In this document: piece after piece, positions 7,010-45,254 of the stretch
Position numbering within the stretch: the stretch's first letter is position 1
Layout: every line of letters begins with the position of its first letter
Source of the DNA: Candidatus Altimarinota bacterium
Lineage (GTDB): Bacteria; Patescibacteriota; Gracilibacteria; UBA1369; GCA-2718715
NCBI GenBank assembly: GCA_041242255.1
Contig: JBESAV010000001.1
Location: forward strand, 128,001 to 192,000
Length of the DNA: 64,000 nucleotides
Direction: 5' to 3'
Notes under the pieces: generated by a model
Database searches by the model: none
Told to the model about the DNA's origin: nothing
The model's input: the letters and a program-made list of their open reading frames with translations, nothing else
Made by a program: the position numbers and the translations under genes

Positions 7010-9292
7010 CTACCCTTGTTCTAGAATCACAGAATCATAACTTCCTTCAGTTACAACATCTCCATTCTCGTACTCAAGAGTATCTTCCATAACCTCAATC
7101 TCAAGTCTATAACCACCATTTGGATATCCAAAGTTACTTACATCTACGCTCATTCCATCACTTGCAAGCTCAACGGTTACATTAACTTCAGCTCTTTGAT
7201 TACAAGTCTGAGTATCATATCCTAAACAACTAAATACTTTCACAGCATCAGTCAATGAAGCACCACTTCTAAGTCTAATTTCTTGTCCACTCACACCTGT
7301 TTCTAGGTTGATAACATCACTTGGATTGATTTGATCATCATCTGTATCCAAAACTAAAGCCGGACCATAAGTAGTAGCAACTACTGGACCATTAAACTGA
7401 ATATTAGAATCATTCACCCTCCACTCTTCAAGCCAGTTAGTTTCCTCAACAACTCTAACTTCATACTGTCTATTATTTTCATAAACTCGACCAATCAAAG
7501 TCAAAGTAACTTCTTTAGTTGCATCATCAAAGCTCAAGTCATACTCACTAGCATCAGTTTCTTGACCACCTTCATAAAGAGCAAAATTATCTAAAATCTC
7601 GGCTTCATCTGTTTCAGAAACCAGTCTATTTGGTTGGAATACTGCATTAGCACCATCCACTTCTTTCAACGAATAAGTAATTGAAGCAAGATCAGCTACA
7701 ACTTCAAACTGGTAACTATCACCAGTTACTGTAGTTCCATCATCATAAACAAATCCAGCATCTTCAATCTCTACTTCATAAATTCCAGCTTCAAAACCAT
7801 CTCTTTTCGAGATAACTACACTTTCATCAGCCGCAACTCTTGAGTATTGAATCTCTGAGTTATTAGTAAGCTCAGTTCTACTAGAACAATTCGCATTGTC
7901 ACACTTAAATATTCTTACAACTTGCTTATCATTCTGAAAAGTAGAGGATCTATCAAATCGACCATTATCAGATAAAAAGTCAATATCATCCCCAGGCCTA
8001 GCTTCTTCATCATCAGCACTTAGAACTAAAGCCGGACCTTCAGTAGGATCAGCAGCTTCAACCTCAAAGTCTAATTCCAATTCTTGAACTTTTTCTCTTT
8101 CAAAAGTATCAAAAATTCTCAACTGATAATCTCCAGGGCTTAGCTTATCTCCTAGATCAATCTCAATATTTTTAAGATTCAAATCAACATCAGAAGAATC
8201 AAAAGCAGTTATAAACACATAGTTAGCTCCATCCTCTCTATAAATTGCTAGATCAGAATCATTATCATCTAAATCAATCTCCGAAGCATCCATATCCAAA
8301 TCTTCAGGAGTATTATCGCTACTAGATTCAAAGAACTCTAATTCTAAAGTATCTCCAACCTGTAAAGTATCATCCTTAATCTCACCAATCAAAGCAACTC
8401 TATCTACTTTACATCTTCCTTCATAATCTACATCAACACCTTCAGCTTCAGCTTTACAAGAGTTTTGGTAAGTATTTCCATCAACTCCACATACAAAAGC
8501 ATCCACATCCGAACATGATTCAGTCACGTTTCCTTTAACATAAAACCAGTAAACTTCATCATCATCTAAATCATCAAAGAAATCCCTATCAATCGGATCA
8601 TTTAAGTCTCCAGACTCAGTTAAACGTTCAGCTTCACCAGTTACATCACCTGTCCAAAAAATAACCGCTTTACCTGATATTTCAGAAAAATCTGGTTTAG
8701 GACCATAGTTCCATCCTCTTAAGGCTTTAAAGTCCCCTACTCTATCCTCAACGTAAGTCTCATATTCGTAGGCTCTACTTGTATTAAAGATCAAAGTACC
8801 ATCAAACTCATCATCAAAAATATCTAATGTATCGATATCATAATCAGATCTAAAAATCTCATTTGGATAAACGTCCCAATCTTGCTGTTCAGCATCCCAA
8901 ATAACTGACAAAGTCAGCTGATCAGTCAAACTCGTATTTTCATTTAAAAATTCAACAATTGAATCATATTCCCCATCAAACACTATCGGAGTCCAAGTTT
9001 CTCTAGCAGAACTAAAGTTTAAATCATCTTCATCAGGTAAATCCCCCGTTCTCTCAAACTGATAGAAATTACCATCCGGTGTCAAAGCACCAGACAAACT
9101 AACCTCAGGATCTATCACCAAAGTTGGTGGAGGTCCAATCTCATCAACAGTTAACTCATCATCAGCCGACCCCATAAGTTCCTCTGTTTGAGGCTCTTCC
9201 CCAAAGTTAGAACTCACAAGTATCGCAACCACACCAAGGATCACCACCAAGGCAGCAACTCCAAGACTATACTTTTTATTTTTAATCTCCAT
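7010..9292 (-). CDS. membrane-anchored surface protein, paralog B (shared module + Kazal domain + repeated Ig-like domains)
   Basis: TM helix; GPPPTLVID..LSG, YPNEI, GWNYGPKPDFS, YWFYV; Kazal VCGVDGNTYQNSC..A......YEGRC. Confidence 0.85.
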   Translation of the reverse strand: MEIKNKKYSLGVAALVVILGVVAILVSSNFGEEPQTEELMGSADDELTVDEIGPPPTLVIDPEVSLSGALTPDGNFYQFERTGDLPDEDDLNFSSARETWTPIVFDGEYDSIVEFLNENTSLTDQLTLSVIWDAEQQDWDVYPNEIFRSDYDIDTLDIFDDEFDGTLIFNTSRAYEYETYVEDRVGDFKALRGWNYGPKPDFSEISGKAVIFWTGDVTGEAERLTESGDLNDPIDRDFFDDLDDDEVYWFYVKGNVTESCSDVDAFVCGVDGNTYQNSCKAEAEGVDVDYEGRCKVDRVALIGEIKDDTLQVGDTLELEFFESSSDNTPEDLDMDASEIDLDDNDSDLAIYREDGANYVFITAFDSSDVDLNLKNIEIDLGDKLSPGDYQLRIFDTFEREKVQELELDFEVEAADPTEGPALVLSADDEEARPGDDIDFLSDNGRFDRSSTFQNDKQVVRIFKCDNANCSSRTELTNNSEIQYSRVAADESVVISKRDGFEAGIYEVEIEDAGFVYDDGTTVTGDSYQFEVVADLASITYSLKEVDGANAVFQPNRLVSETDEAEILDNFALYEGGQETDASEYDLSFDDATKEVTLTLIGRVYENNRQYEVRVVEETNWLEEWRVNDSNIQFNGPVVATTYGPALVLDTDDDQINPSDVINLETGVSGQEIRLRSGASLTDAVKVFSCLGYDTQTCNQRAEVNVTVELASDGMSVDVSNFGYPNGGYRLEIEVMEDTLEYENGDVVTEGSYDSVILEQG

Positions 9293-9338
9293 CGCTCAAA
9301 ATTAAATTTATCATATAATTATAACACAATTCTCTACA

Positions 9339-9368
9339 CAAAAAAAGAGACCCACCTGGGTCTCTTTT
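9339..9368 (-). terminator. intrinsic terminator
   Basis: aaaagagaccca-cc-tgggtctctttt perfect hairpin. Confidence 0.8.
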
Positions 9369-9387
9369 ATAGTTTACCTAAGTCCTT

Positions 9388-11868
9388 TTACAAACTTACT
9401 TGATAAACTTTTCCTCCACCATACTCAATCTTTTTACCATCATAGATATCGTAAACCGTTCTTCCAGAAGTAGCTTTATAGTCACTACTTAAGTAGAAAT
9501 CATTCCCATCATAGAAGAAATCACGATTCAAGAAGCTTCCAAAATTATGGAACCTAACATCTAACCTACCAAAGATCATCCTTTTATATCCAGGGTCATC
9601 TACTCTATCAAACACTTCATCTTTAATGACAATTGTTCCTTTATTGTTGTATGCGAAGTATCCTTCAATTTCACTAGCCGAAGTAATTACACTTGGAGCA
9701 TATTTAGGCGAACTATAATCAAGACCGTAATTATTAGTATTAATACTCATACTTCTCATTTGGTCATCAGCTGCACATATGAAATCAGCATTTTTATCAT
9801 TATTATCACCAATCATATAAGTCACTGGTGCACCATTAGAGAATCCATCATGTACCCATACTCCGTCACCCATAGAAATCACTCTAAAGTTATCACCTAC
9901 TAGATTACTGATCTCTTTTTGTTGATTCAGACCAGAATCTCTATGAATACAAGCACTACTATACCTAGTCTTTCTCATTTTCAATGCGTTGTTAGTTTCA
10001 TAAATTTGCCCAACATAACGCTTATTATTTCCACTTAGCCTGTTTAAGTGTCTTCCTACGAAATGAATAGATCCAAGAACAGGATTGTATGACCAATGCA
10101 ACAATTCTTCAAAATCATTTTCAGAACTATCAAATGTAACCTCTTTTGAAACTCCATCTGAACCCGCATAGAACAACACTCCATCTTTAGCCTGAGAAGT
10201 CCATACAAAGTAATCATCATCCTCCATTCTCACAAGATCATAATGCTGTCTACTCTGACTATTCGACTCATTATTAACTCTAATTTTAGCAGATACCATT
10301 TTGAAATTATTTCCAATTTGCTTATACAGACAATTCCCAGTTGGAGTTTCAAAAACATTATTAAATGAAGCACAAACTCCATTGGCTCTAGTAATAAGCC
10401 AAACCTCATCATCTCTACTTACCTTCATATCCACAACACTCTCTCCAGATGATAAACCACTTAGATTAGCAATTTCTTGATTAACTCTCGACTCAAATTC
10501 CACTCTATGACTTTGTGGAGAATCAATTTCACTAAATACATATCTCAAAGTCGCATAGTCCGGATGTGAGAAACTTAAATTCACTGCACTAGACTCAAGC
10601 ACTGTATTAAAACTAGCTGAAGTTGGCCTTAAAGTTTCATCTTCCAAACTTGAATCAACATAATTAATCGACAAAGTATAACCAGTTACAAAGTCACCAT
10701 TCGTATTTAACACAGTTCCTTTATAAGCTACACGTTCAGGTTCAGATGTTTGAGTTCCAATAGTAAACCTATCTTGTAACTCAATCTGCTGAGTAGGCTG
10801 TTGAATTTGATATTGAGAAAAATCAATCTGATCAAAGAAGCTTCCAGAAATTAAATCAGGATTCATAATCATAGTCCCTTCCGTCTCATTAGTTTCCTGT
10901 GTACCCACAGTTAAATTAGGCTCCATTGCTTGAAGATTATTCTGGACTGGAGAGGTTAAATTTCCTTCTATTTGAGCCGCCACTGGATTTGGCTCTGTAG
11001 CCTCAACAGGTTCTGCATCATCTGGTTCAGATTCTACAACATTTTCGTTATCAGTTTCCTCTGGCTCAACTGACTCAGCAGGTTCTGTATTGGTAGCAAC
11101 TTCTTGCTCTGGAAGTTCTCCTCCCTGAGCAACTACTGAATTTTCCGAAGCATAAATCCAATACAAATCATTATTACTCAAAGTATCAGGATTAAAATCA
11201 CTTCCAGACTCTCTATAAAACTGCTCTAAATTTTCTCCACTAAAGTCCACCGACCAAATTGACCTATACCCTAGATCAGAGAAATCAGGCTTAGCTAAAA
11301 GATTCCAAGATGCATTCACATAGTTATCATGTCCAGCAGCCTCTCTGTAATTATTACAGAAATCAACTGAAACATTTGAATTCAAAACTACCACATCACC
11401 TTTCTGAAGTTCTTTATCAAGCTCAAGCAATGGAAGATTTCCACCATCACTACTCTTAATAATTCTGTTTGGCAAAGCTTCAAAAGTTTTATCTTCACTA
11501 TTGTAGTAAACAACTAAAATTCTATTCCCTTCAGAATAGTCAGCTTGTTCAAACACTACTTCCTCCACAGTCATACCATCTTCATAAGCAGTCACAGTAT
11601 ACCAACCATTCTGCCTATCAGATTCTCCCCCAAGTCTTTCACAAGTCTCAGGACCCGCTTCAAACATATCTGCTTCCTCTTGAGAAACAATGTAAAACGG
11701 CTCCCCAGAAAGAGTAGCATTGTATCCAGTATCAATGCTTATTCCAGGAGGCGCACTAGATACATCAAAGTTTTCCTCTTCCTGAGAAACACTTAAAAAA
11801 TAAGCTGATGATCCTATTACAAGGAGCAAAACCCCTCCAATAGCACCATACAATTTCTTTTTGTTCAT
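9388..11868 (-). CDS. membrane-anchored surface protein, paralog C (shared module + acidic linker + beta-rich C-terminus)
   Basis: TM helix; [39 protein letters not shown], LYWIY. Confidence 0.85.
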   Translation of the reverse strand: [826 protein letters not shown]

Positions 11869-11916
11869 ATAATTTTTGTTACAAATCTATATATTATAAC
11901 ATTTTAATTACAAAAT

Positions 11917-11949
11917 AAAAAGACCCACTTGTCAAACAAGTAAGTCTTC
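11917..11949 (-). terminator. probable intrinsic terminator
   Basis: aagacccacttgt..acaagtaagtctt imperfect hairpin preceded by A-run. Confidence 0.55.
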
Positions 11950-11969
11950 TAAATTTCTCTCAAACTTAT

Positions 11970-14885
11970 CTATTCTCCAATTTTCATATTTGATAGAGAA
12001 AGTCGTCCATTTTCTTCTACAAAGACAAATAGTTTCTGACCAGCAGAGATAACTTGCTTAATCTCAGCATTATCCCCATAAGCTCCACCTAAACCTTTCA
12101 CAAGTCTTAACCTTCTATCAGATGAAGTTCTTTCAATTTTATAAATGTTATCAACACTTCTATTTAAAGTCATATAAGTAGTTCCAGCAAATTGCACAGG
12201 AGAAATAGGTGTACCTGCAACATCAATCTGATGCCCAACTCCTCTTTCGTCAGACCTTCTACAATCAACTACAGTCGCCTCCTCTCCCGGAGCTTCCGGA
12301 GCTTGAACACTCGAACAATCCAGTTCAAACAATCTAAAACTTCCACCTCCATCTTCTGCTCTTACTAAAGCTTCCCCAAAGTGTTCTGCACTTGAAAGCC
12401 TATCACTTCCTTGATTTGTGGATCTAACTTCCATCCATGCCGTCTGAAGATCATTCCAGTAGAATACATTTCTAGCAGAATTAATTCCAAACACATTCGA
12501 ACCATTGAATACAATTTCAGATAAGAACGATTCTCTTCCAGAAGTATTGATTCTATCATAACCTCCGTTAGGTAATTGGTGTCTATAAATCTCCCCTTGA
12601 GGACTATTGATAGACCATAGAGCTCCAGTATCTGAAGCAAAGAATCTATCTCCAGCTGTTGGGAAGTCATTCCCATTTAGACCGATGGTATCACCAAATT
12701 CAGTCATTCGTTGGATATTACATGTATAATAAGCTTTTGGATCAGCGTTTCGACCAACTGTTCCAGTTACAGCCCTATCACAATCATATCTCACATAGAG
12801 AACATCTTTCATCTCACCATTTCCTGCATCATATTTACCTTCCACAGTATCGATTCCTGATGAACCAAATTTCTCAACTTGATCAACATTACCATCTATC
12901 AGATTAGTTCCACTGTAATCATATCTATAAAATCTTCCATCCACACCTTCCCATGCAATGAGTGAATATATACGCTGATTAGTTTCACCAGCCATCACAT
13001 AGAAATCATCATCATCATTTACAAAGTTTCTAACACAGTTGTTTGTCCCTCCATCAGCAGGCACAGTACATACTGCTCTACTCAAAGGAGTCATACCTGG
13101 AAGTAATCTCCATTCTCCATCACCTTGAGAGAAGTTTTCAAAGATCTGACCATTATTATTGATCGCCCAGAAACCTCTTCCTACTTCATCATAGTGAACA
13201 CTTCTTACAGTTCCCGGAATCTCAGCAAAATCCTGATAATTATTCATACCTTCAAACGGTTGATCTGCAATCGTATCACATTGACCATTATCATTAACTG
13301 TCACATCGAACTCTCCATCTTCTACATTTGTTCCATCTTGGAAAGTAAGTCCTGAAACAGTTACTCTAATCTGCGAACAACCAGCCCATGCATCATTAAT
13401 ATCATCTCTAGGTCTAATTCTAATAGTTCTAGCATTATCAGCACTTGGCTCCCAGAAGATTACATACTCCCTATTATCTGGCCTACTTCCAAATTGCAAA
13501 CTAATTGCAGGGTCTCTCCTGTCCACATTCTTTGGAGCTAATAGAACAATATCATCTTTATAATCAATTCTGTCATCCTTAAGTTTAAGAGCTAAACCTT
13601 CACCTTGATTACAATCAATCTGGTTAGCAACTTCAGATGGGAAAAGTAATGCTCCTTCATCTCCTTGAGCAAGACTATCCTCTCCATCCACTTCACTTAC
13701 TGTAAAGTTCTCAGAGAAATTACCACATTGTAAAGTAACTTCATCACCAGCAGATATCTCACCACTAGCTACAGTACCAGTTACAACTGTACCTCTTCCT
13801 CCAACACTGAACACATCATCAATAGAGAAAACAGGTGTTCCAGTAGCAAAATCACCAAAGTCAATTCCACCAAAACCTGGATTTAAAGTAATACCACCAG
13901 TTTCACGCTGATCAATTACAACTAAATCATCATTTCCAGATCCAAATAAATCTCCAATTCTATCAATAATCGAAGGATCAACATCAATTACAGTTCCAGT
14001 ACTACCACCTTCAGTTCCTGAACCTTCTGTCCCGGTGTTACCATCAGTCTCAGATCCAGAGTTTTCTCCACCGTTTTCATTACCAGAGTTGTTTCCTTCT
14101 GTCCCTGACCCTTCAGTTCCTGAACCTTCTGTCTCAGAACCATTATCTTCCGAAGCCAATTCACCTCCATACACCCAATATAAAATATCATCTTCTAACG
14201 AACTAGGATCAAAATTAGCATCACCTTCTCTATAAAACTGATTCAAGTTCTGACCACTAAAGTCTACAGACCAAATCGATCTGTATCCTACAGCATCGAA
14301 ATCAGGCCTACTGACAAGATTCCAAGAACCTACAGTAACAACCTCATGATCTACAGCTTCAGCATAATCTTTACAGAAATCTACACTTCTATTTGAATTA
14401 ACCACAACCACCTCACCTTCTTCTAAAACAGTATTCCAATCTAGTAACGGAAGATCCGCTCCTCCAGCAGCTTTAATAATCCTATTAGGCATTGCCTCGA
14501 AACTCTTCTCAGACGGATTATAATAAACTGCAAGCATACTATCACCTTCTTCAAGATTAGCCTGCTCAAAAACGACCTCACGCACCGTCATACCATCCTG
14601 ATGTGCCACAACACTATACCAACCTTGCTGACGATCATCTTCGCCTCCAAGTTCAGCACAGGTATCAAGACTATCATCATACATATTCTCATCATCAGAG
14701 GTGACAATGTAAAACGGAGTTCCCGACAAAGTCGCATTATAACCAGAATCGATCACGATCCCAGGTGGAACACCTATTACTTCCTCTTCACCTTGGTTGT
14801 TTGAAGTTATAACTAAACCAACAAAAACCAGAGCAAGGACACCAAAGATCCCGATAAGAACCTTCTTCATCATACTTTTACTCAT
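11970..14885 (-). CDS. membrane-anchored surface protein, paralog D (shared module + G/S/T/E linker + EF-Tu domain II-like barrel + propeller)
   Basis: TM helix; [22 protein letters not shown]...[33 protein letters not shown]-type blades. Confidence 0.85.
   Translation of the reverse strand: [971 protein letters not shown]
13995..14145 (-). repeat. low-complexity coding repeats (GSGTE units)
   Basis: ccttcagttcctgaaccttctgtc occurs twice (about 14008 and 14110); encodes [16 protein letters not shown]. Confidence 0.7.
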
Positions 14886-14910
14886 AATTTATATTTAAAC
14901 TAATCCTCAT

Positions 14911-14919
14911 ATTATAACA
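14911..14919 (-). promoter_or_regulatory. extended -10 promoter TGTTATAAT
   Basis: attataaca on + strand about 25 nt upstream of the start; same element at 9318-9326, 11893-11901 and 34458-34466, variants at 3937-3945 and 16887-16895. Confidence 0.7.
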
Positions 14920-14932
14920 CAAACCCCAAACT

Positions 14933-14960
14933 AAAAAAAGCCCCGCATCACGGGACTTTT
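14933..14960 (-). terminator. intrinsic terminator
   Basis: A-run + gccccg-catca-cgggac hairpin. Confidence 0.6.
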
Positions 14961-14979
14961 ATATCTATCTAAAACTAAC

Positions 14980-16854
14980 TTATGGTTGATCCACTTTCAG
15001 TCTATAAGCACCTACACTCGAAGCTGCTCCTTGAGCAGAACTTTCCGCAAACTCAACTTGCAGATTAATCTGACCAGATACAGCATTACTATTATATTGG
15101 ATCGAAGTTATATTCAGCACAGCTCTTCCAGAATCCGTCAGATAAACACTATACTCAACATCATTTATCTCAGATGAAAAAGTAAGCTGATCCTGCAAGA
15201 TCTGATTATAATTCTCAGCTCCGTCTGGTTTTTCCAAGTAAACAAGTAAAGAATCAACCGGACCAAATCCTACAACATCTTCACCTTCCAAAACTTCAGT
15301 CACAACTTGATCTTCAAGATAAACCTTTCTTTGTTGTGTGATCACATGACACTCATCTTTTTCTAGAGTCACATCAAAACTTTCAGATTCAACTCCGGCT
15401 TTCTCAACTCTAATGGTATATTCTCCTTCCTGCTCAGCTAGCAATTGATACACACCACCAACTCCTGCTCCATTCAACCTTTCTACTTCAACACCATCCT
15501 GAATCACAATTACCGAAGCATCAGTAATTGGATTATTAGCAATCCCTACTACCTCAAGCACCACACCATATCTCAACTCTTGAGTACAAACTACATTTCC
15601 AAGTTCATCATCAATTATCTCAACTTTGAAACTAACAGTATCCAAATTTCCAGCTGCATCAACAATTCTAAATTCTACTTCCTTTGGAAGCTCAGCCAAA
15701 TCATCATCAATCGCTTCGAGATTAAATGAAGTCAAAGTACTTTCACCATCACTAAAGTTTTTCCCAGTTGCAAATGCATTTGCACCAGCAGCTACAGATC
15801 TAGAAGCAAGTTCAGTTGCAGAAGTTAGATCAACCTGCTGCCCATCTTCATACATCTCAAATTCAAGTTCAACTTCACCATCAGCAGGTAAAGCCAATCC
15901 CACGCTATATCTCAACTCACCACCATTTTCCTCAACTTGGAAAGTCTCACCTTCGACTACATCTCTCTGACCAGCTGTATTTTCATTATCAACTTTTACA
16001 ACTATTCCTTGTTCAGTCGGATTAGGGTTTGGATTTGGGTCAGGAAGATCCCCCCCATCAGTTACTGAAGTTGCCGCACCTCCATATACCCAGTACAACT
16101 CATCTTCAGGTAAATCTTGTGGAACTACAGAGTTTGAAGGATCATCATAAGCATAAAACCTCTCAGGATCTACTCCAGAATCACCACCTTTAGCAAAAGC
16201 AACTTCCCAAATTGCTCTGTAATCAACAGCATCAAAATCAGGCTTACTAACAAGATTCCATCTCATTTCTATATTTTCATGTGAACCAACCTCTGCATAA
16301 TCAAAACAGTAATCAGCATCTCTATTTGCACTCACTGAAACAACAGTTCCTTTTTCAAGTTCTTGCTCTCTATCTAATAGAGAAACATTAGAACCGTCAG
16401 TATTTACAATTATCTTATTAGGCCAAGCTTTAAATTCTTGATCCTCAGCATCATAAATAACTGCCACCATCTTATCCCCTTCTCTTAGCTCAATTTGCTC
16501 AAAAATAATGTCTTCGACAGTCATACCATCTTCGTATGCTACTACTTGGAACCAACCATTTTGAACACTTCTTCTGTATTCAGCAGTTCCAATCTCATTA
16601 CAAGTATCTAAACCATCATCATACAAATTCTCGTCATCTTCTTCAACAATATAAAAAGGCTCTCCAGACAATGTCGCATTATAACCGGCATCAATCGTAA
16701 CCAATGGCGGTGGAGTCATACTATCAAACTCAACAACTTCAGCTGGCTCAGCTGGCTTTTGCGCGAAGTACAAACCAACTCCAAGCAATACTACAAATAT
16801 AGCAGTAACCAAACCAATTAGCTGGTTCTGGGTTAATTTCTTAGAAGATTTCAT
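14980..16854 (-). CDS. membrane-anchored surface protein, paralog E (shared module + Ig/carboxypeptidase-regulatory-like domains)
   Basis: TM helix; [23 protein letters not shown]...[26 protein letters not shown] segment bracketed by CTQE and ECHV. Confidence 0.85.
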   Translation of the reverse strand: [624 protein letters not shown]

Positions 16855-25450: not shown

Positions 25451-27346
25451 CTATTTTTTCTTTCTTCTGATTCCAAACAATCCTAGTAAAGTCGCTACTA
25501 AAGCAGCTCCTGGTGCAGCCGGCTTTTCAGTTGGAACTGCATTACAAGTTGGATCTTGATCATCTCCTCCACCTGGAGTAACTTCACCTTGTGGGTTTCC
25601 GTGATCCACAACTGGTTTTTCGTCTTTATCCATTTCATCTGGATTCATATCAGGATCCATATCTGGATTATCTTCTGGGTCCATATCAGGTCCCATATCT
25701 GGGTTATCTTCCGGATCCATGTCAGGCCCCATATCTACAGGTTCTTCTACTTCATTAAGCCTAACCTCTAATGCTTCAACTTTATAATTTATATTATCAG
25801 CAGCATCAACAGAAATCATAACTATAACATAAGCTTCTTCTCTTGCTTCAAATCCAACTTCAGTAGCATCAAGGTCAACTTCTTTAATTGAACCCAAAGA
25901 TCCCATTTTAAATGTAACTTCACCCTCAGGAGTTTCTTCCACATTAACATTACCTTGTATCCAATCAACTTTCTCAGCTTCAGACATATTATTAAACTCA
26001 GAAACAGTCATACCCTCAACCATAGGAATAGAAGCAACCGAAACATTAGCCATCGCAAGACCATCAAGTGATCCAGCTGGCCAAGTTAAAACAACTTCAG
26101 TAGGAACCTCTTCCACATCAATCACATTAAGTCCATTTTCCTCATAAGCTCCTTCAATTTCAAAATCAATTGCTGCAGGAGCAACAACATCAATGTTTAA
26201 AGCAATCTCTTGGCTTACTTCAGCTCCATTCTCATCCAAAACAACATTTCCATCAGCATCCAAAACTTTCACATTCGCAACAGTAGTTATCTCTCCTTTA
26301 CTTGCATCTAGTAATTCTTGAACAGTAAATACTTTTTCGTAAGTTCCTCCTCCCAAATCTGAAAGATCATAGCTTACACCATCAACAAACAGAGCAATCG
26401 AACCATTCTCAACCATATCAGTAACCTGAACCTGCAAAGCCTTATTACCAGCCTCAACAACATTCAAACTAAACTCCGCCGGCACACTCAACACAGGAGT
26501 AGGCGTAGCTACCACAGCTTCCATTTTATATTGTTTATAATCACCATTATATTCAGTTCCATAAAAGATTGTTTCGTCAGGTGCAACAGCTGTTGATAAA
26601 CCAAAACCACTTTTCAAACTACCGTTTTGCTGATACAAATCTAACTTAATCAATAAAGTATTAATTTTCTGATCTGCTATACCATTAGAAGCTTCAGGAT
26701 TTGCCATTAAGTCACCAGTGAAATAACTAAACATTAGCCCATTATCAAACGCTACACCTGCTTTATCACCATTAGGTGTCATCACAAAGTACAACGGCTT
26801 AGGTGAAACAGAATTAGATAACTCACTAACAGCAAATGAGGGTGTACCTATATCAGAAATATTAAAAACGTGAGATTTAACTCCGGTTGTTACCATCACA
26901 TAACCTTCACCAATGGGAACAATACCATTGGATATATTAACAGATTCTTGAAAAGGAACACTTTCAACCACAGAACCAGAATTAACATCAATTATCTCCA
27001 TCACATCACCATTTACAGACTGTAACTTCACAGCATAATTAGAATTTAATTCTACTACCCCACCGTTATTAATACCTCTTTCTAATTGAAAGCCGTAAGA
27101 ACCTGGATTACTAAAGTCAGCATTAAAAGCACCTGCTACTGGATCTGTACTACTTAAAGAACCAATGAATCTTACATCATCAACAGTCCCCGGGTCAGCT
27201 TCAGCATTTTTTTCAACACCACCAAAAGCAGCCATTGCAGCTAAGGCAGCTATAGTATTCCTTAAAGAAGGTAGCTTCGATACCTTAATTTCTTTTTTAT
27301 TTCCCTCAACACTTGGTTTTTCTAAACCTCTTTTTCTCTCAACCAT
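25451..27346 (-). CDS. secreted protein with acidic tandem repeats and MYXO-CTERM-like C-terminal tag
   Basis: Likely start MVERKRG at 27346 (track starts at 27409); signal AALAAMAAFGG..AEA; ends DDQDPTCNAVPTEKPAAPGAALVATLLGLFGIRRKKK. Confidence 0.8.
   Translation of the reverse strand: MVERKRGLEKPSVEGNKKEIKVSKLPSLRNTIAALAAMAAFGGVEKNAEADPGTVDDVRFIGSLSSTDPVAGAFNADFSNPGSYGFQLERGINNGGVVELNSNYAVKLQSVNGDVMEIIDVNSGSVVESVPFQESVNISNGIVPIGEGYVMVTTGVKSHVFNISDIGTPSFAVSELSNSVSPKPLYFVMTPNGDKAGVAFDNGLMFSYFTGDLMANPEASNGIADQKINTLLIKLDLYQQNGSLKSGFGLSTAVAPDETIFYGTEYNGDYKQYKMEAVVATPTPVLSVPAEFSLNVVEAGNKALQVQVTDMVENGSIALFVDGVSYDLSDLGGGTYEKVFTVQELLDASKGEITTVANVKVLDADGNVVLDENGAEVSQEIALNIDVVAPAAIDFEIEGAYEENGLNVIDVEEVPTEVVLTWPAGSLDGLAMANVSVASIPMVEGMTVSEFNNMSEAEKVDWIQGNVNVEETPEGEVTFKMGSLGSIKEVDLDATEVGFEAREEAYVIVMISVDAADNINYKVEALEVRLNEVEEPVDMGPDMDPEDNPDMGPDMDPEDNPDMDPDMNPDEMDKDEKPVVDHGNPQGEVTPGGGDDQDPTCNAVPTEKPAAPGAALVATLLGLFGIRRKKK
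25630..25737 (-). repeat. coding tandem repeat (DMGPDMDPEDNP, 36-bp unit)
   Basis: Two full and partial copies visible in both DNA and protein. Confidence 0.85.
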
Positions 27347-27429
27347 AATATCTTGTGTTATATCTAGCATGAAAATACTACATATAGTGGTTGACGTCAA
27401 CCACAACACAAAATTGTCAACTCACAACC

Positions 27430-29385
27430 TTAATTAGAAACATTCACAAACCCAGTATCTACAACCCCTGAAGTTTCATATTTATTTTTCACCATTCTGT
27501 TCCCAAATCCAAAATCATAAACAATGTAACCTTCATCAATTCCAATAATCTTATCAGAAACTAGTTGATACTCTAATCTAGTAAAAGTTCGTGGCGTATA
27601 ATTCTGACCTTCATATAATTTCCTATTAACAACTTCCAGGAAATCATCAATAGACTGCAAGACAAACTCAGGATTCTTCAAATCATCCTGACCTTCAGTA
27701 TCCAACAAATACAAATGATAATAATCACTATAATCAAACCCAAACCCTTGCTCCTGATATGGGAATTCTAATTTATTAACCAACACATTTGAAATCTTAG
27801 ATTGAGGATCATATCCAAAAGAGTAATCAGATAAATTATCATTTGAAAGCTGAGACCTAGAAGATTTTGTAGCATATAACGACCTCATTGAACTTACATA
27901 ATCCCCTCTTAACTTTGCTAAACTTAATGTTGAAAAAGGTCCTGTTCGAGCATCTTCTAACAAGTCAGGACTTCTGTAATCAATTAAGGCACTATTTTTT
28001 ATCAAGAATAATCTATTCTCCCTCCCTCTCTCCAAATTATAATCCCCTCTCATCGGCAAGAACCTACCCTCATCAGAAAGACCATATCCAAACACCAACT
28101 TCGTAAAGTCAAACTCAGGGCTCTCAATGCTATGTTTCGCTAGCTGTCTATAAGTATGATTACAAATTGGATTGCCATTTGCATCAAGCTCATCACATTC
28201 AGCATGAGTATCCCCACTAAACTCATTCAAAAACTCACTATCAAAAAACTCATACCTTTCCACTGGATGACAATTACTTGATCCATCAGCACACCTCAAT
28301 CGAATTCTCAAAATCAAAGTATCATTCTGATCAAACCCATCATAGTATGATTGCTCAAAAGCTCTCTGTACATCCTGTTCAAGATTTGAGCCAGTCAAAG
28401 CCAAAGATCCAACCCATCCGACATTTCCAGCAGTCTTCTCCAAAATTTGCTCTTTGTTAAAAGAACTCAAACCAAACTTAACAGTCTCACCCTTCTCCAT
28501 CACATTCCAGTTACACGGGTGATCTAACGGATCTATGAACTCATCACTCCCATTCCATTTAGCTCCAAACTCAACCTGATGCGGAACACACTCAGTACCA
28601 GCATCACCAGTCCCTAAAGCCGGAACAGTATAGTAAAACCTTGCTTCTTCCTGTCTTTCTTTAGGGTTATTTGTAACCACCATCTGAGAAGTACTTCTGT
28701 ATGAATCAGCCACAGTCACTCTCCTTAAACCAACATTACCACATTGAAAGTTCGGCACAGCAACACTCAGAAAATTCTTCCCATCAGAAGCTCTCTTAAA
28801 GATATTATAATCCCCAGTACCTTTATCATAATTAGCAGATGGATCACACAAGGCTCCAAAGTCCCCAGTATAAAATCCTAGATCAGCCTGCTTAGTCAAA
28901 GCCACTTCTCCTGCATTAGCCCTAGCATCAGGGTCTACAATCTCAGGACCTATCAAACTATTACTATAATTTTGTTCATCAAAACTATAAGCAGTAGGAA
29001 CAGGCACAACTGAAGCACCATAAAAATCATACTCCATAACCACATCAGCATTTCCATTCCCATAAACTGGCTTCGGTAATTCTAAAGCATCTCTCAAGTC
29101 AGCTCCATTTGATGTAAAATCTAGCACTTTCCCTAACTCATAGTACCCACTCCTAAATTGCATCAATCTACTCAAAACCTTGTTAGCAATATTCACAGAA
29201 AATCTCTCCTGTATGTTCTCCTCTAAACTACTCCCAACCGCACGCTGATAATCAACCGTCTGCCTAGCAATCTGAGTTGAAACCACAACCATACCTACTG
29301 CAAACAAAACCCCAACTATCAAAACAGCATAACCTTGCTTACTTTTCCCTATAAATGATTGAAATTTCTTATCCATATGAGCCAA
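27430..29385 (-). CDS. large pilin-like protein (PilX/GspK-like)
   Basis: KSKQG|YAVLIVGVLFAV class III-like signal lacking E5, last gene of the pilin cluster. Confidence 0.65.
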   Translation of the reverse strand: MAHMDKKFQSFIGKSKQGYAVLIVGVLFAVGMVVVSTQIARQTVDYQRAVGSSLEENIQERFSVNIANKVLSRLMQFRSGYYELGKVLDFTSNGADLRDALELPKPVYGNGNADVVMEYDFYGASVVPVPTAYSFDEQNYSNSLIGPEIVDPDARANAGEVALTKQADLGFYTGDFGALCDPSANYDKGTGDYNIFKRASDGKNFLSVAVPNFQCGNVGLRRVTVADSYRSTSQMVVTNNPKERQEEARFYYTVPALGTGDAGTECVPHQVEFGAKWNGSDEFIDPLDHPCNWNVMEKGETVKFGLSSFNKEQILEKTAGNVGWVGSLALTGSNLEQDVQRAFEQSYYDGFDQNDTLILRIRLRCADGSSNCHPVERYEFFDSEFLNEFSGDTHAECDELDANGNPICNHTYRQLAKHSIESPEFDFTKLVFGYGLSDEGRFLPMRGDYNLERGRENRLFLIKNSALIDYRSPDLLEDARTGPFSTLSLAKLRGDYVSSMRSLYATKSSRSQLSNDNLSDYSFGYDPQSKISNVLVNKLEFPYQEQGFGFDYSDYYHLYLLDTEGQDDLKNPEFVLQSIDDFLEVVNRKLYEGQNYTPRTFTRLEYQLVSDKIIGIDEGYIVYDFGFGNRMVKNKYETSGVVDTGFVNVSN

Positions 29386-29443: not shown

Positions 29444-30547
29444 CTAATCTACACTTGCCACAACAGTCCTTTGAATCTTAAGTTCATATTCATCACTCAA
29501 TCCAAACACAAAATAATCAGGCGATGTCTTCAAAGTCATCAAAATAGTCACCCTAGGTGGCACCTGCACATTTGGATCAAACTCACCAAAAGCCTTCGAC
29601 GCATCCTCCCTTGGTTCGATCACAAATTTCAGCTCTTCAACCGAAACCTTCAGAGGCGTAACCGGAATAAAATTCTCCAATATATCTTCTCCGTCCTCCA
29701 AACTATATAAGTCAGTCCTATCAACCATCTCTCCCAGACTATTCGTACAATTATATCCTTCAGCACAGATATAGTCTTTAGTTTCAATCCCACCGCTAGT
29801 TGTCGCAGCATCAGCAATCAGCTCTAGCTTCGACACAGCATAACCATTATCAGAAACCTGCTCTCTACTATATATAGTCTTCACCGACTCATCCTCACTT
29901 ATTATATATAATTCATCAAACACATTCGACACACCCGAACTACACGAACCATTTCCAGCTCTTCCTACAGCTGGGTTTGGTGAATTCCCAGTATCATAAC
30001 TTATATCCAAATACGAACTACTACAAAATGCTGCTGAGCTAGTTCCTCCAAAAATACCTTCATTAAAATCTTCACTATAACTCAAGCTAGCAGACACACA
30101 GTCTGGATCAGGTACTCTGACCAGATCATATCCACCACTTCCATTTGGCTTCTGACACAGGGCTCCAGCAGCATCAGGCACCTCTTTTCCAGCAGAATAA
30201 TAAATCCCACCATCATAAAACTGCCAAGCATACAACCCATGATCCTGACCATATTCAGAAGAAGTTGTTACACTAGCTGATATATCAACATTTGGACATA
30301 GCCCGTTTACCACACATTGATTAAAGTACTCTTCATAATCCACACTCCCCTCACTAATTTCTCTAGCAATTGTATCCATCAAAATCTTTGAATCCTCCAA
30401 AAGCGCAGCTCTCACAGCCATCTCCTGTGAAAAAACATAAGTATCAAAAAAAGCTGTTATTAAAATTGTCATCAAAAAACCAGATATAGTCAACGCCACC
30501 AAAACCTCAATCAAAGTAAAACCAGCCTTCTTAACAATCTTAATCAT
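29444..30547 (-). CDS. prepilin-type protein (PilW/GspJ-like)
   Basis: KKAG|FTLIEVLVAL; DYEEYFN; C-terminal PRVTI..IQRTV. Confidence 0.88.
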   Translation of the reverse strand: MIKIVKKAGFTLIEVLVALTISGFLMTILITAFFDTYVFSQEMAVRAALLEDSKILMDTIAREISEGSVDYEEYFNQCVVNGLCPNVDISASVTTSSEYGQDHGLYAWQFYDGGIYYSAGKEVPDAAGALCQKPNGSGGYDLVRVPDPDCVSASLSYSEDFNEGIFGGTSSAAFCSSSYLDISYDTGNSPNPAVGRAGNGSCSSGVSNVFDELYIISEDESVKTIYSREQVSDNGYAVSKLELIADAATTSGGIETKDYICAEGYNCTNSLGEMVDRTDLYSLEDGEDILENFIPVTPLKVSVEELKFVIEPREDASKAFGEFDPNVQVPPRVTILMTLKTSPDYFVFGLSDEYELKIQRTVVASVD

Positions 30548-31245: not shown

Positions 31246-34200
31246 TTACTGACTTATTACACCAAACACCGGCATATCATCTTGAGTACCCAAAGACCTA
31301 ATGTTCACTGACCTTATATCTGCGTAATTAGGAAAACTCGGGTTATCAGCCAAGACTTTATCCAACTGCTTTATACCAGTAGCTCCAGTTCCTTGGAAAA
31401 GGCTCCCCGCTATAGTCTCTTCTATCAAAGAAAGCTCACGATCCCCACTTATATATCCTTCAGAATCAAAACAAGCATTCTCGATCGTAATCTTATCTTC
31501 TATATTCCTACATTCATTTTTCAAAGTACCATTTGAAGTCAACGGCTCAAACGAATTGGCATTCTCTCCACAAGGAACTAAACATGTATATGTTTCAGTT
31601 ACTGTATTACCAGTTGGCTGGCCAAAAGCATCCCTTTCCTCCACATCAACATCTTTAGTCACAAAATCAAAAGTCAAAGGAGTATACCTAAAGGCATTTA
31701 AATCATCATTCAGTGACAAAGCTCTACTTTCAGACACAGAACCATCCGCTCTCAAAGGAGGAGTATTCGAAGCACACCCGATACAATTCCCTGAATACAA
31801 TGCACCAACCAAACTAAACTGATTATACAAAGTACTTTCATCTATAATACTTCTATTCAAAATATTATCAGCATCCCCTTCAGCCGCTGCGACTGCATTC
31901 GCAGCATCAGGAGCAGACAACAACCTTCCATCAGAATAGATGTAAGAAACAACATCAGTCACATTCGCACTTACTATCACTTCACCACCTTGACCAAGAT
32001 CAGATTCGAGAACCACAAAACCAGGTACATCATTAAGCTCTGATTCCATAGCTGAAATATCTGTCCCAACTCCTAAAGCAGAAGAGAAACTACTTGGAAC
32101 AATATTTTGATCCAAAATGAAGTCAACTCCATACATTACAATAACAGGCGCTTTCCCCTCATCAGATACTTGATCATTCAGTAAACTCTGTATCTCACTC
32201 AACCTCACATATCCACCAGGTCCTTCTTTAGTTGATCTAGCACCAATAAACACCACATGACGCTCACCAGATTTACTTACCCTATTACATCCTTTCAATA
32301 AACCAATCATCTCAGAACGTTCGACCTTACTAAATTCCAAATTCCCACAGTTACCAGGCTTAGGATTCATCTGTATAATATTCCTCAAAACTCTGTAGAC
32401 TCTTTCTTTTACTTGAATACCTTGGTTTGCACCCTGAGTATCTTTCGACCCACTACTAAACGTAGTAGAACCGAACGATCTATCCACTAAACCACCTTGA
32501 ATATTTAACTCAAATATATTCTGTGAATCATTAGAGAGTTCTGGCCCAAACCTCCTTACAGTAGCACCAGTCGGCAACCTGTATGAAACACTAGAAGTAA
32601 TAGCTAGATCCAAAATAGGTTTCAAAGGCTCCATCTCATTTATAGTTACACCATCAGCTAGATCAACCGTTAACCAGAACCCTGTAGACTCATAGCCGTT
32701 TTGACTAGCCAAAAGTTGATTCTGGAAAGGACGGCTACCTTCCTGATCAATTGTTGCCGTAATCGAATCAAACTTAGAATCATACAAAGAATTCACACTC
32801 GGCTGTCCAACAATACCTACACTCAGATTTCCAATTCCACCACCTCCATAAAACTCTCCACATATACTTGCTGGCATAGGACTATCAAACTCAAGCACAA
32901 GATCACCATCTCTACAGGTTTGCCTTGTAACATTCTCACCACCCAAAATACTCAAGTCATAAGGTGGCTGAAAAGTTAATGCACCATTAACAGTTGGATC
33001 ATTGTCTTCTTTATATAATCCAGAAATATCGTTATACATAAACACCTGAACCAGATCAAACTGACCTTGCTCCACAGGTATTCTAGAAGAAATAGTCACA
33101 ATCGACTCAAAAACATTCTTAGTAGAATTATATGTAAACCTATTGGCTGACCTCCCCATTACTGTCTTACTTGGAGAGGCATCCCAACCTAATTGATTCA
33201 TCTGAACATCGTCTTCAACTGCAAACTGAGTAGAACCATCTCCACATCCATAAAATGGTATACGTCCAGTAGACGAACTAGTTACATTCACAGGAAAATT
33301 TCCAGTCGTATCAACCTTACGTCTATCCCTGTATGCCAAGCAGAAAGAATTTTGCAAATTAGTATCAGCAAATTCATCAGTCACATTCGTAGAACCATCG
33401 TAGAAACTAACCTCTATCTTATAACCATTTTCACCATTAGCCAAAACGTCTCCAGGATTAGCTTTCACATAATTCACTCTCGCATCATAAGTTGGGGTCA
33501 ACAAAGGCAAATCAACTTGAACTCCCGTAAAGTCCATATACCCTAAACTGTCAGACCAAGCGTATCCCGCAAGTACAGCCCTACTAGTAGTAGCATCAAA
33601 ACTATCAATATAAACTCCATAGTCAGCCCCACCATTTGCAGCACAATTCGCTACATCAAAACTATTTAGATTTGTATCAGCAGCACAATTAAGCTTCAAC
33701 CATCCAGTCGCATCATTCCACCAAAATCCAAACAACTCTCCTTCACCTTGGTATCCTGCCCCTACTTTAACTAAACTATCAAATTCAACTGAACCTACAC
33801 TCAACCCCCTATTCACAGGACCTGAACCTAGATCTTCAGCCATAGTTGCAAACCAACCAATATTTGTATTCCATCCCCATCCATCCACACTAAAATGAAG
33901 CTCTCCAGCAGGAACATTCGACAAATACCTGTCTAAACAAACCCTATAATCTCCATCTGGGGCAACATTATCAAAGTCAATCACACCAATCCCCTTCACT
34001 GGATTATCATTTGTAATCCCATAAAAATCTTTACAATACACTGGTGTAAAAATAGAAGTAAACCAAGAAGGATTAATTGGTGTTATCCCAACAGCAGTAT
34101 AAGCCCCCGTAAAAGTTCCTATAAATGAATTAGCAGGTGGGTTATTTAAAACCACGGAACTATTATCATTAACAACAGTTATGTTACCAGCATCTACATT

Positions 34201-34425
34201 TAAAGATGCAGCTGGAACCTCAGCATCACATCCAGCTGCACTGGTATAAGAGTAATCGGTAGGAGGACCAGCATTAAATCCTCCAGGACCAGCCTCCAAA
34301 ACATAACAACCATCCTTAGTAACCGCAAAGTCAGCACTAGCACCCTCCATATCAACACCTGCAACTAAACCAAACAACATTACGAAAGCTAGACAACCCC
34401 ATTTAAAGAAAGACAATTTATACAT
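31246..34425 (-). CDS. large secreted protein with G-x-x-W-(N/S)-x-x-x-G-(W/Y) repeats, probable pilus-associated
   Basis: Signal peptide; GWGWNTNIGW, GFWWNDATGW, GYAWSDSLGY; heads the pilin cluster. Confidence 0.75.
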   Translation of the reverse strand: MYKLSFFKWGCLAFVMLFGLVAGVDMEGASADFAVTKDGCYVLEAGPGGFNAGPPTDYSYTSAAGCDAEVPAASLNVDAGNITVVNDNSSVVLNNPPANSFIGTFTGAYTAVGITPINPSWFTSIFTPVYCKDFYGITNDNPVKGIGVIDFDNVAPDGDYRVCLDRYLSNVPAGELHFSVDGWGWNTNIGWFATMAEDLGSGPVNRGLSVGSVEFDSLVKVGAGYQGEGELFGFWWNDATGWLKLNCAADTNLNSFDVANCAANGGADYGVYIDSFDATTSRAVLAGYAWSDSLGYMDFTGVQVDLPLLTPTYDARVNYVKANPGDVLANGENGYKIEVSFYDGSTNVTDEFADTNLQNSFCLAYRDRRKVDTTGNFPVNVTSSSTGRIPFYGCGDGSTQFAVEDDVQMNQLGWDASPSKTVMGRSANRFTYNSTKNVFESIVTISSRIPVEQGQFDLVQVFMYNDISGLYKEDNDPTVNGALTFQPPYDLSILGGENVTRQTCRDGDLVLEFDSPMPASICGEFYGGGGIGNLSVGIVGQPSVNSLYDSKFDSITATIDQEGSRPFQNQLLASQNGYESTGFWLTVDLADGVTINEMEPLKPILDLAITSSVSYRLPTGATVRRFGPELSNDSQNIFELNIQGGLVDRSFGSTTFSSGSKDTQGANQGIQVKERVYRVLRNIIQMNPKPGNCGNLEFSKVERSEMIGLLKGCNRVSKSGERHVVFIGARSTKEGPGGYVRLSEIQSLLNDQVSDEGKAPVIVMYGVDFILDQNIVPSSFSSALGVGTDISAMESELNDVPGFVVLESDLGQGGEVIVSANVTDVVSYIYSDGRLLSAPDAANAVAAAEGDADNILNRSIIDESTLYNQFSLVGALYSGNCIGCASNTPPLRADGSVSESRALSLNDDLNAFRYTPLTFDFVTKDVDVEERDAFGQPTGNTVTETYTCLVPCGENANSFEPLTSNGTLKNECRNIEDKITIENACFDSEGYISGDRELSLIEETIAGSLFQGTGATGIKQLDKVLADNPSFPNYADIRSVNIRSLGTQDDMPVFGVISQ

Positions 34426-39913: not shown

Positions 39914-40501
39914 TCAACCTTCAAAATAAAAAAATCTATCAAAAGCTCCTTGATCCCCACTTAGATCTAGGAGTTTTAAATTTACAGATATCCCGCTTAC
40001 ATCCTTACCCTCATCAATCATAACTGCCAAAGCAGAAGCTCTATGATGACCATCTATTAAACAATATTTAACACCATCATACACAGCAATCAAACAAGTT
40101 TCATCTTCGAAATGATTTACAAATTCTTTCACTCTTTGATTTTCACGAATCGTTGCTTTCTCCTCAATACCTCGTGAGTTATCTAAGTTTCCCAAAAAAG
40201 TAGCATTATCTCTATCATTTTCGTAATAATCTCTCCATCCATTATAAGGTCCAATATATAAATTTTTTATAAATTCAACCAAATCATTAACTTCAACCTC
40301 AAACCAATTATCCAATCCCAACAAACCAAAATTCTCTAAGTAAGACTCCCTCCATTCTAGAACTGAATTGTATCCTCTATTTTTAGCAAATTCACCCCAA
40401 ATAGCATCCTCTCTTTCCATCCAATCAGACATAACCTCATCATATGAAATTTTTCTACCAATAGTTACTAAACCATTACCCATACTTTCTAAATTCTTCA
40501 T
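39914..40501 (-). CDS. ParB/sulfiredoxin-like N-terminal domain protein
   Basis: YCLIDGHHRASAL motif; starts 5 nt after the sufS stop. Confidence 0.6.
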   Translation of the reverse strand: MKNLESMGNGLVTIGRKISYDEVMSDWMEREDAIWGEFAKNRGYNSVLEWRESYLENFGLLGLDNWFEVEVNDLVEFIKNLYIGPYNGWRDYYENDRDNATFLGNLDNSRGIEEKATIRENQRVKEFVNHFEDETCLIAVYDGVKYCLIDGHHRASALAVMIDEGKDVSGISVNLKLLDLSGDQGAFDRFFYFEG

Positions 40502-44705: not shown

Positions 44706-45254
44706 TCACTCATCTGCCAATTCAAGAGACCTACACAAATCAACAAATTCTTCTAAAACCATATGACCCGATTCATCAATCTCAACTTCCAAATCCTCAT
44801 TAACTACATAATCAAACTCCAGCAAAAAGTAGTCTGATCTTCTATCATCACAAATCTTAAAATAAATCTCTCCAAAGATATGCCCCTCCAATTCATCAAA
44901 TTCTACAAAATCATAAACTCTCACATCACGATCCTCATACACCACATCAAAAGCATCTAAATCATTCCTATTTTCTGGAGTAAAAAAATAATAAGCTCCA
45001 CTTTCATCACCTCCTCGATTTTGAAACAAATCACACTCCATTTCATCAAATACATAATCGTCCCTCACTTTATATCTCAATTCAGGACATTCATAAGCAA
45101 CACCCAAATCAATAGCTCCTACCTCAAACACCTCTGTTTCTAAAAGCTCTCCATCATTTCTTAAATCCAATCTACTCTCAACAACTAAACCATCATCAAC
45201 ACCACACATACCAATCAAACCACCCAAAATTAAACACAAAAAAATTACCAACAT
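44706..45254 (-). CDS. hypothetical acidic exported protein
   Basis: Hydrophobic N-terminus, D/E-rich body. Confidence 0.55.
   Translation of the reverse strand: MLVIFLCLILGGLIGMCGVDDGLVVESRLDLRNDGELLETEVFEVGAIDLGVAYECPELRYKVRDDYVFDEMECDLFQNRGGDESGAYYFFTPENRNDLDAFDVVYEDRDVRVYDFVEFDELEGHIFGEIYFKICDDRRSDYFLLEFDYVVNEDLEVEIDESGHMVLEEFVDLCRSLELADE

Follow-up and report, generated by a model that had tools for sequence, protein, structure and literature searches.

Domain 2 (D2) of translation factors belongs to the PF03144 (GTP_EFTU_D2) domain family and to the 'translation protein' beta-barrel fold, both of which are textbook knowledge, and in EF-Tu, SelB and EF-1alpha it accompanies a G domain and a domain 3. 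EF-Tu is also found outside the cell: moonlighting EF-Tu of Mycoplasma, Haemophilus, Leptospira, extraintestinal pathogenic Escherichia coli (ExPEC) and others is the complete cytoplasmic factor, carries no signal sequence, and is documented to bind host molecules when surface-exposed (PMC6822514). According to the accessible text of that paper, these surface functions rest on short linear motifs that lie in exposed parts of the surface that are not conserved, and the accessible part of a study of ExPEC describes transferrin binding that survives deletion of any one of the three EF-Tu domains (PMC9037478). Here we describe P0001, a 971-amino-acid (aa) protein of a Candidatus Altimarinota bacterium (Gracilibacteria), encoded on the minus strand at 11970-14885 (open frame under translation table 11, stop codon included) of a 64,000-nucleotide stretch of contig JBESAV010000001.1 (positions 128,001-192,000, hereafter the window). 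Like moonlighting EF-Tu, P0001 would place EF-Tu-type sequence outside the cell, but here the gene itself makes one domain part of an anchored protein, and unlike EF-Tu, SelB and EF-1alpha it has neither a G domain nor a domain 3; its D2-type beta-barrel (residues ~345-434; 13584-13853, minus strand) is instead preceded by a membrane helix and a low-complexity linker. On balance, we think it fairly probable that the barrel is an old, diverged EF-Tu-type D2 module of a surface protein, with a structural or binding role that depends on the fold only, and that it is not a mimic of EF-Tu.

An earlier note on this DNA had recognised an EF-Tu D2-like peptide at 13590-13845; the quoted peptide occupies 13590-13844 on the minus strand (P0001 residues 348-432), the noted start being one base out of frame, and its likeness to EF-Tu D2 is far above chance in the first half of the barrel. 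BLASTP of P0001 against the resident EF-Tu (L001, 395 aa) gave 15/34 identities (44%; pairwise E 2e-6), and phmmer against the PDB returned 70 distinct sequences at E <= 10 (best E 1.6e-4), the 60 matches listed all being EF-Tu or SelB-type chains, in which the alignment falls each time where D2 begins. NCBIfam models of EF-Tu (E 1.1e-6, covering residues 352-396 only) and SelB (2.6e-6) matched as well, and a narrow EF-Tu D2 hidden Markov model (HMM) built from 14 tuf genes scored 25.8 bits over residues 353-400. With a profile of 47 GTPase-less D2 proteins, from which the query was excluded, P0001 reached 54.4 bits (aligned 349-400, envelope 344-432), the runner-up among the 233 reading frames of the window scoring 4.1 bits. 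A genome search with profile A2, which has P0001 itself among its 48 rows, recovered the barrel at window 13587-13847 (E 2.5e-22). The barrel shares with EF-Tu, SelB and EF-1alpha the predicted D2 fold and the core motifs D-V-F and G-R-G-T-V-V-T-G, followed by G-D-x-V and G-x-x-x-x-L-L, and at each checked position of DDVF, GRGTVVTG and G-D-x-V its residue is the commonest or second-commonest one of the 47 D2 proteins. Further along the barrel, phmmer alignments to stand-alone D2 proteins extend to residues ~421-425 (whole-library E 1.8e-4 to 8e-4), and CysN models of NCBIfam align weakly with residues 368-434. Together, these comparisons point firmly to residues ~345-434 being a true, though diverged and old, homologue of the EF-Tu-type D2 barrel.

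Beyond its own protein family, the barrel is most closely related in sequence to D2 proteins from metagenomes and metagenome-assembled genomes that, like P0001, have no G domain. When 1.84 billion representative proteins were searched exhaustively by phmmer with residues 335-971, 20 matches were obtained, comprising P0001 itself, the C-terminal homologues P0003 and P0004, P0005, an unrelated repeat protein (P0009) and 15 GTPase-less D2 proteins, which include stand-alone forms of 88-160 aa and the tandem forms P0006 and P0008. P0005 (423 aa) is an E. coli-like EF-Tu with internal duplicated segments, probably an assembly artefact in the public collection, and owes its high rank to two summed D2 matches. 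The GTPase-less D2 proteins align to the P0001 barrel with 28-37% identity over ~80 residues, that is, over the whole barrel. Their architectures include a Zn-ribbon fusion with two D2 (P0007), a protein that starts with a hydrophobic segment and also has two D2 and a cold-shock domain (P0012), a multi-barrel protein with a signal-like N-terminus (P0020) and lipoprotein-like D2 proteins (P0021, P0027). A profile search placed 7082 of 8000 candidates of 48-280 aa at E <= 1e-3, and crude sorting of 135 retrieved sequences (P0010-P0139 class) gave 29 that resemble EF-Tu fragments, 44 with an MGLF-type N-terminus, six with a Zn-ribbon, four that are signal- or transmembrane-like (two with lipoprotein-like boxes) and 52 unclassified. 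The 44 small proteins of the MGLF type begin with a conserved MGLFDFFKK-like sequence. Some of the GTPase-less D2 genes lie on very long contigs (369 kb, 305 kb and 1.75 Mb), and despite the missing G domain their source names read 'EF-Tu/IF-2/RF-3 family GTPase', 'elongation factor Tu' or 'hypothetical protein'.

GTPase-less D2 proteins are thus widespread, lipoprotein-like forms included, which goes half-way towards the architecture 'already widespread and described' that the earlier note had named as refuting its idea; our literature searches, which mostly did not extend to papers in subscription journals, found no description of GTPase-less or stand-alone D2 proteins. P0001 differs from them in several respects. 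The eight that were scanned all exceed the Pfam cut-off and match PF03144 over its whole length (42-104 bits), and these proteins keep the 'E-x-F-R-K' (FRK) loop of D2 and their median net charge is 0. Most appear to be cytoplasmic and start with an MGLF-type or Zn-ribbon sequence, with few exported (P0020, P0021, P0027), and none of those listed sits within a multidomain protein of ~1000 aa. Where a stand-alone D2 protein consists of a short tail and one D2 in ~90-160 aa, P0001 is 971 aa long, with no fewer than four further regions.

The predicted structure agrees with the sequence comparisons. An AlphaFold2 (AF2) model of the barrel, built from a 48-row alignment, had a mean predicted local distance difference test score (pLDDT) of 77, with values of 83-91 over query residues 11-80, and Foldseek found 115 matches to it in the PDB at E <= 1e-3. 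The 40 matches listed (ranks 1-50, duplicate chains omitted) were all EF-Tu or EF-Tu-containing complexes, with TM-scores of 0.63-0.70 and root-mean-square deviations (rmsd) of 1.7-3.9 A (mostly 1.7-2.9) over 87-96 columns; the best-fitting EF-Tu chains gave 1.7-2.4 A over 87-92 columns at a Foldseek probability of 1.00. We take the predicted fold as corroboration of a D2 barrel, not as independent proof of it.

Apart from D2, no domain of EF-Tu is detectable in the protein. HMMs of EF-Tu domains 1 and 3 did not match P0001 even at E 1000, and the domain 3 HMM found nothing in the middle domain that follows the barrel. PF00009 (the G domain) did not match P0001 either, and the absence of a GTPase domain that had been read from the translation is thereby borne out. 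The replacement of basic residues, suggested at the same time, is also evident: the barrel has three Lys and Arg and a net charge of -12, against 13 and -2 in D2 of the resident EF-Tu. The FRK loop, which is near-invariant in EF-Tu and stand-alone D2 proteins, is deleted in P0001, where a four-residue gap falls at the FRK columns. The two cysteines to which the earlier note drew attention are Cys387 (codon 13725-13727, minus strand), at the end of an 'EVTLQC' strand, and Cys425 (codon 13611-13613, minus strand), within a two-residue insertion that EF-Tu D2 does not have, and both are conserved in every related surface barrel. The column of Cys387 reads TLQC or LYC in all five surface barrels and holds Cys in 4/47 stand-alone D2 proteins, and that of Cys425 reads IDC, INC, VNC or LIDC in the surface barrels and is a gap in 47/47 stand-alone D2 proteins. 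Cys387 and Cys425 would be expected to form a disulfide.

The setting of the barrel is very probably extracytoplasmic. P0001 has a single N-terminal hydrophobic helix (residues ~5-27; 14805-14873, minus strand) within a hydrophobic segment at ~4-31, either a signal anchor or a signal peptide, and this is the only stretch of the protein in which the 19-residue Kyte-Doolittle hydropathy exceeds 1.6 (windows from residues 3-13). It is preceded by Lys2, Lys7 and Lys8 and followed by an EEE run, from which the positive-inside rule would predict an N-in/C-out topology. The protein has an isoelectric point (pI) of 4.16, a net charge of -93 and 12 cysteines in six domain-local pairs (76/171, 387/425, 503/536, 606/617, 702/722 and 857/875). 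Because of the single helix, the low pI and the even, domain-local cysteine pairs, we judge P0001 to be very probably extracytoplasmic, membrane-anchored and disulfide-bonded, in line with the earlier prediction of an extracellular setting for a D2 without a GTPase.

The barrel belongs to a small family of such proteins, defined by an N-terminal domain (residues ~28-240 in P0001; 14166-14804, minus strand) with a conserved pair, Cys76-Cys171, and with no match among Pfam families; an Atlas feature search with this domain gave unnamed clusters only, and is a lead only. In a collection of 5.8 billion proteins only 12 clusters matched the domain. Among 205 genomes of the order, four strong matches were found, all in the present genome, and two other genomes had weak ones (E 6.5e-5 and 1.7e-4); a scan of genome contigs of GTDB species representatives with the N-domain alignment gave 40 pattern matches, of which none was confirmed. 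Orthologues of residues 335-971 were sought in the genomes of 60 relatives, in which only tuf genes matched, and a word-index search with residues 335-560 retrieved P0001 itself only. The family is very small and lineage-specific, restricted to close relatives. One member, P0141 (972 aa), has an N-domain 72% identical to that of P0001 and a matching architecture.

A D2-type barrel is present in four of the 13 family proteins (P0001, P0003, P0141 and P0143). Against the stand-alone D2 profile, on which P0001 scores 54.4 bits, the two barrels of P0003 score 42.4 and 8.2, P0141 29.6 and P0143 0.8 bits, the last reaching 22.1 bits when the profile is made from the barrels of the family itself; in P0003 and P0141 the alignment covers 80 of the 123 D2 profile positions. 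Every family barrel keeps the two cysteines and has the FRK loop deleted, and cysteine counts are even in 13/13 family proteins, with domain-local pairs. The EF-Tu motifs, by comparison, drift across the orthologous barrels, DDVF becoming EEMF or SDVT and GRGTVVTG becoming GRGTAVVG or GRGTVVQG, and in P0143 they are nearly erased while the Cys pair and the barrel length are retained. Two extra barrel copies, at residues ~262-356 of P0003 (8.2 bits) and ~402-479 of P0143 (0.8 bits), are eroded, with the Cys pair still in place; they appear to show how fast the EF-Tu signature fades outside the cell.

In its general plan P0001 resembles modular surface proteins assembled from small beta-domains such as Big, CarboxypepD_reg-like and PEGA, represented here by the paralogue at 14980-16854, P0004 and P0146-P0150, with which it shares an anchor module, linkers and paired cysteines, and, as in such proteins, beta-modules are interchangeable among family members. 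It is unlike them in that one of its modules comes from a translation-factor domain family, not from the usual extracellular Ig-like sets.

Several observations weigh against reading the barrel as a D2 module with a fold-only role. The Pfam model PF03144, a scan with which had been proposed, gives P0001 15.5 bits (E 0.024), below the gathering cut-off of 30.3 bits, and aligns only residues 365-385 to model positions 1-21 of 73 (18.6 bits for P0001 in the genome-wide scan; P0003 scores 19.6 bits). The second half of the barrel is not distinguished from chance by an EF-Tu-only profile, 1014 of 2000 shuffles scoring equal or better. The AF2 model took an alignment of D2 homologues as its input, which in part dictates the fold, and single-sequence AF2 of residues 315-671 was unusable (pLDDT 34.9). 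In the phylogenetic tree described below, the surface barrels fall in an unresolved polytomy with long branches based on only 92 columns, and the pairing of P0001 with P0003 carries an SH-aLRT (Shimodaira-Hasegawa-like approximate likelihood ratio test) value of only 39. Finally, DDVF...GRGTVVTG is fully kept in P0001, so that a retained EF-Tu-like binding surface is possible. As regards the first of these points, P0001 connects to bona fide PF03144 members through the intermediate profile of 47 GTPase-less proteins, with which the homology is significant despite the sub-cut-off Pfam score. As regards the second, the 'AGENVGVLL / EIERGQ' continuation that the earlier note had matched by eye does not stand up against EF-Tu alone, but the second half of the barrel is supported by the alignments to stand-alone D2 proteins, the weak CysN alignment and a predicted fold that spans the full barrel.

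Under the fold-only reading, the most likely source of the barrel is the large pool of D2 domains that lack a GTPase, and not the resident tuf gene. Following export, a Cys pair would have arisen inside it, the FRK loop and most basic residues would have disappeared, and its sequence would have moved away from that typical of EF-Tu. It would most likely now serve as a compact, rigid element, that is, as a stalk, a spacer or a binding scaffold of new specificity, and may hold the C-terminal propeller-like domain out from the cell. This reading is favoured over mimicry of EF-Tu because the EF-Tu motifs erode among the orthologues while the Cys pair is kept.

Alternatively, the barrel itself might be the ligand-binding element of an adhesin, with a new specificity unrelated to EF-Tu, for example for a polymer of a host surface, which we regard as unlikely. 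The two tandem barrels of P0003 would suit such a role, as would a genome of ~1 Mb, which suggests dependence on other cells, and a gene neighbourhood with a type IV pilin-like gene and further large uncharacterised proteins. In addition, four of the five non-synonymous changes among strains (in 1.4 kb compared) fall within the barrel. Sequence variability among orthologues would, however, be equally expected of a spacer, and the C-terminal propeller-like region, which is a lead only, is the more obvious binding part.

We consider it rather improbable that the exported barrel has been functionally co-opted with its EF-Tu D2 binding surface intact, to act as an adhesin, a mimic or a decoy, for example for toxins, antibiotics or phage proteins directed at EF-Tu D2. 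P0001 does retain those D2 core motifs that are the most conserved, and D2 is a known docking site, the top Foldseek match being the EF-Tu/CdiA/CdiI complex (7vmc) and other top ones EF-Tu with bound antibiotics; independent exported D2 proteins also exist (P0020, signal-like; P0021 and P0027, lipoprotein-like), and surface-exposed whole EF-Tu is documented to bind host molecules. The conserved motifs are, however, core strands and not necessarily surface, and the FRK loop is deleted and the basic residues are gone, with a net charge of -12 against -2 in D2 of the resident EF-Tu. An EF-Tu decoy would be expected to keep EF-Tu residues; the orthologous barrels lose them (EEMF, SDVT, GRGTAVVG), down to the 0.8 bits of P0143, and the decoy is therefore unsupported. 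The link to EF-Tu moonlighting and mimicry drawn in the earlier note does not hold up either: the part shared with EF-Tu is the conserved core, whereas the motifs to which the accessible text of PMC6822514 attributes moonlighting are non-conserved, and in the accessible part of PMC9037478 the binding by ExPEC is not confined to D2. A more specific proposal, that the barrel is a purpose-built extracellular stand-in for EF-Tu D2, serving an episymbiont as decoy or receptor for contact-dependent inhibition (CDI) toxins, thiopeptide-type antibiotics, phage proteins or aminoacyl-adenosine-like ligands, with GTPase-less D2 proteins as general EF-Tu mimics and P0001 as their surface branch, would be distinctly improbable.

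That part of the resident tuf gene, or of another translational GTPase gene, was captured recently, or that the assembly is chimeric, is highly improbable. The best NCBIfam and PDB matches are to EF-Tu, and there is a single DNA match between barrel and resident tuf, of 22/25 nucleotides at the GRGTVVTG codons; the DNA similarity does not extend beyond it, and the protein identity to the resident EF-Tu is only 38-44%. The barrel lies in frame within the 971-aa reading frame, and P0141 and P0003, which come from other assemblies, share the barrel, the Cys pair and the loop deletion. A chimeric join, which the earlier note had allowed for, is contradicted by contigs from two sequencing runs, both labelled as marine metagenomes. 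In run X1, which may be the source sample, a 5,421-nucleotide contig spans 13000-14400 without differences, and in run X5, from another study, overlapping contigs (13075-13779, 13756-13884 and 13855-14180) cross both borders of the barrel. This check was made at the level of contigs, and runs X6 and X7 cover the stretch in part only.

The contigs of X5 include two variants of the 129 nucleotides at 13756-13884, one identical to the window and one with 17 differences; of the 15 that were listed, 11 are at third codon positions, and the strain polymorphism in the first half of the barrel amounts to D356E, V361I, G362S and V367A. Across all listed contig variants of the gene, 31 codons are changed synonymously and five non-synonymously, which indicates that the P0001 coding region is under purifying selection. 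A maximum-likelihood tree was computed from 71 D2 sequences over 92 columns, with no SelB included; a D2 family scan of the genome found no SelB. The 19 EF-Tu D2 sequences form one clade (97/50; 98% of bootstrap trees) with P0001 and P0003 outside it, these two forming a pair (98/39) whose nearest rows are stand-alone D2 proteins, and EF-G and LepA D2 lie outside everything else (99/96). The tree decides nothing finer than the position of P0001 and P0003 outside the EF-Tu clade. Mis-assembly and recent copying of the resident tuf do not account for the barrel. Chance or convergent similarity of an unrelated small barrel with a GRGTVVTG-like strand, for which it could be said that only ~50 residues align significantly to EF-Tu and that Pfam stays below its cut-off, is likewise highly improbable in view of the 54.4 bits against an independent profile, the agreement of the predicted fold, the whole-barrel alignments to many D2 proteins at whole-library E values of 1e-4 to 1e-3 and the 80 of 123 profile positions aligned in P0003 and P0141.

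The remaining regions of P0001 are of a similar modular character. A 966-aa record found in the protein collection search (P0002) has the identical sequence with a later start. Between the N-domain and the barrel lies a low-complexity Gly/Ser/Thr/Glu/Asn linker, read off the translation (residues ~241-300; 13986-14165, minus strand), and similar linkers occur in P0003 and P0141. The barrel is followed by a middle domain with no assigned fold (residues ~445-555; 13221-13553, minus strand; Cys503-Cys536), present in P0141 and absent from P0003, and by a repeat-rich C-terminal region with three Cys pairs (residues ~556-971; 11973-13220, minus strand), which is 40% identical to P0003 and 29% to P0004. 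The C-terminal region has no Pfam match; an Atlas feature search gave propeller-type families at 0.86-0.90, a lead only, and by eye the repeats resemble tectonin/tachylectin-type propeller blades. The region is probably a beta-propeller-like binding domain. A terminator-like hairpin (15-pair stem with a T-rich tail, found by consensus scan only) lies just past the P0001 stop codon at 11918-11950 on the minus strand, and another, belonging to the upstream paralogue, just before the gene (14936-14960, minus strand; 11-pair stem and T run).

P0001 is one of four tandem paralogues on the minus strand (7010-16854), which have one anchor module with a conserved Cys pair and differing outer modules. 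P0145 (624 aa; 14980-16854) has the shared N-terminal module and a CarboxypepD_reg-like region, and P0144 (826 aa; 9388-11868) the shared module and a different C-terminus, neither of them with a D2. The fourth (760 aa; 7010-9292) is a distant paralogue, recognised by weak similarity, with a sub-threshold Kazal-like match. The N-domain of P0001 is 52% identical to that of the protein at 9388-11868 and 47% to that at 14980-16854, and weakly similar to that at 7010-9292. The outer modules are D2 with a propeller-like region, CarboxypepD_reg/Big-like (sub-threshold), Kazal-like (sub-threshold) and unassigned, and behind each of the three paralogues between 9388 and 16854 lies a terminator-like hairpin.

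The genome consists of one contig of 1,000,477 bp and is 98.5% complete. Elsewhere in the window, the minus strand at 29444-30547 encodes a protein that carries the N-terminal methylation motif of type IV pilins (PF07963, E 2.6e-7), and its neighbours (25451-27409, 27430-29385 and 31246-34425) are large open reading frames (ORFs) of 651-1059 aa with no Pfam family; together these genes may form a pilus or surface-structure cluster. Some Gracilibacteria lineages read TGA as Gly. TGA stops are rare in the window (4/47 ORFs of at least 150 aa), and two of them end what look like real genes (39914-40501 and 44706-45254, minus strand); genetic code 25 was considered and table 11 kept, since table 11 yields long, densely packed ORFs and TGA stops occur in real-looking genes. 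The plus-strand GC skew across the window (1-64000) is about -0.35 to -0.5 where genes lie on the minus strand and weaker where they lie on the plus strand, a pattern that reflects an excess of G over C in coding strands and is not a replication signal.

The D2 domain and its fold were already known, and what is new is the occurrence of this barrel in a lineage-specific surface-protein architecture. The thousands of small D2-only proteins that are mis-named 'GTPase' in databases look neglected and may be the more valuable lead, and they carry a lesson for annotation, namely that a D2 match alone is no basis for naming a protein a GTPase or an elongation factor. If our reading is true, a highly conserved translation domain has been recruited as an ordinary building block of surface proteins in a marine bacterium with a reduced genome, and the changes in the barrel after its recruitment would have been a new disulfide, a missing loop and a reversed charge. 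The tandem family to which P0001 belongs, with its shared anchor and swappable outer modules, provides candidates for the proteins by which bacteria of the candidate phyla radiation (CPR) type make contact with hosts or particles.

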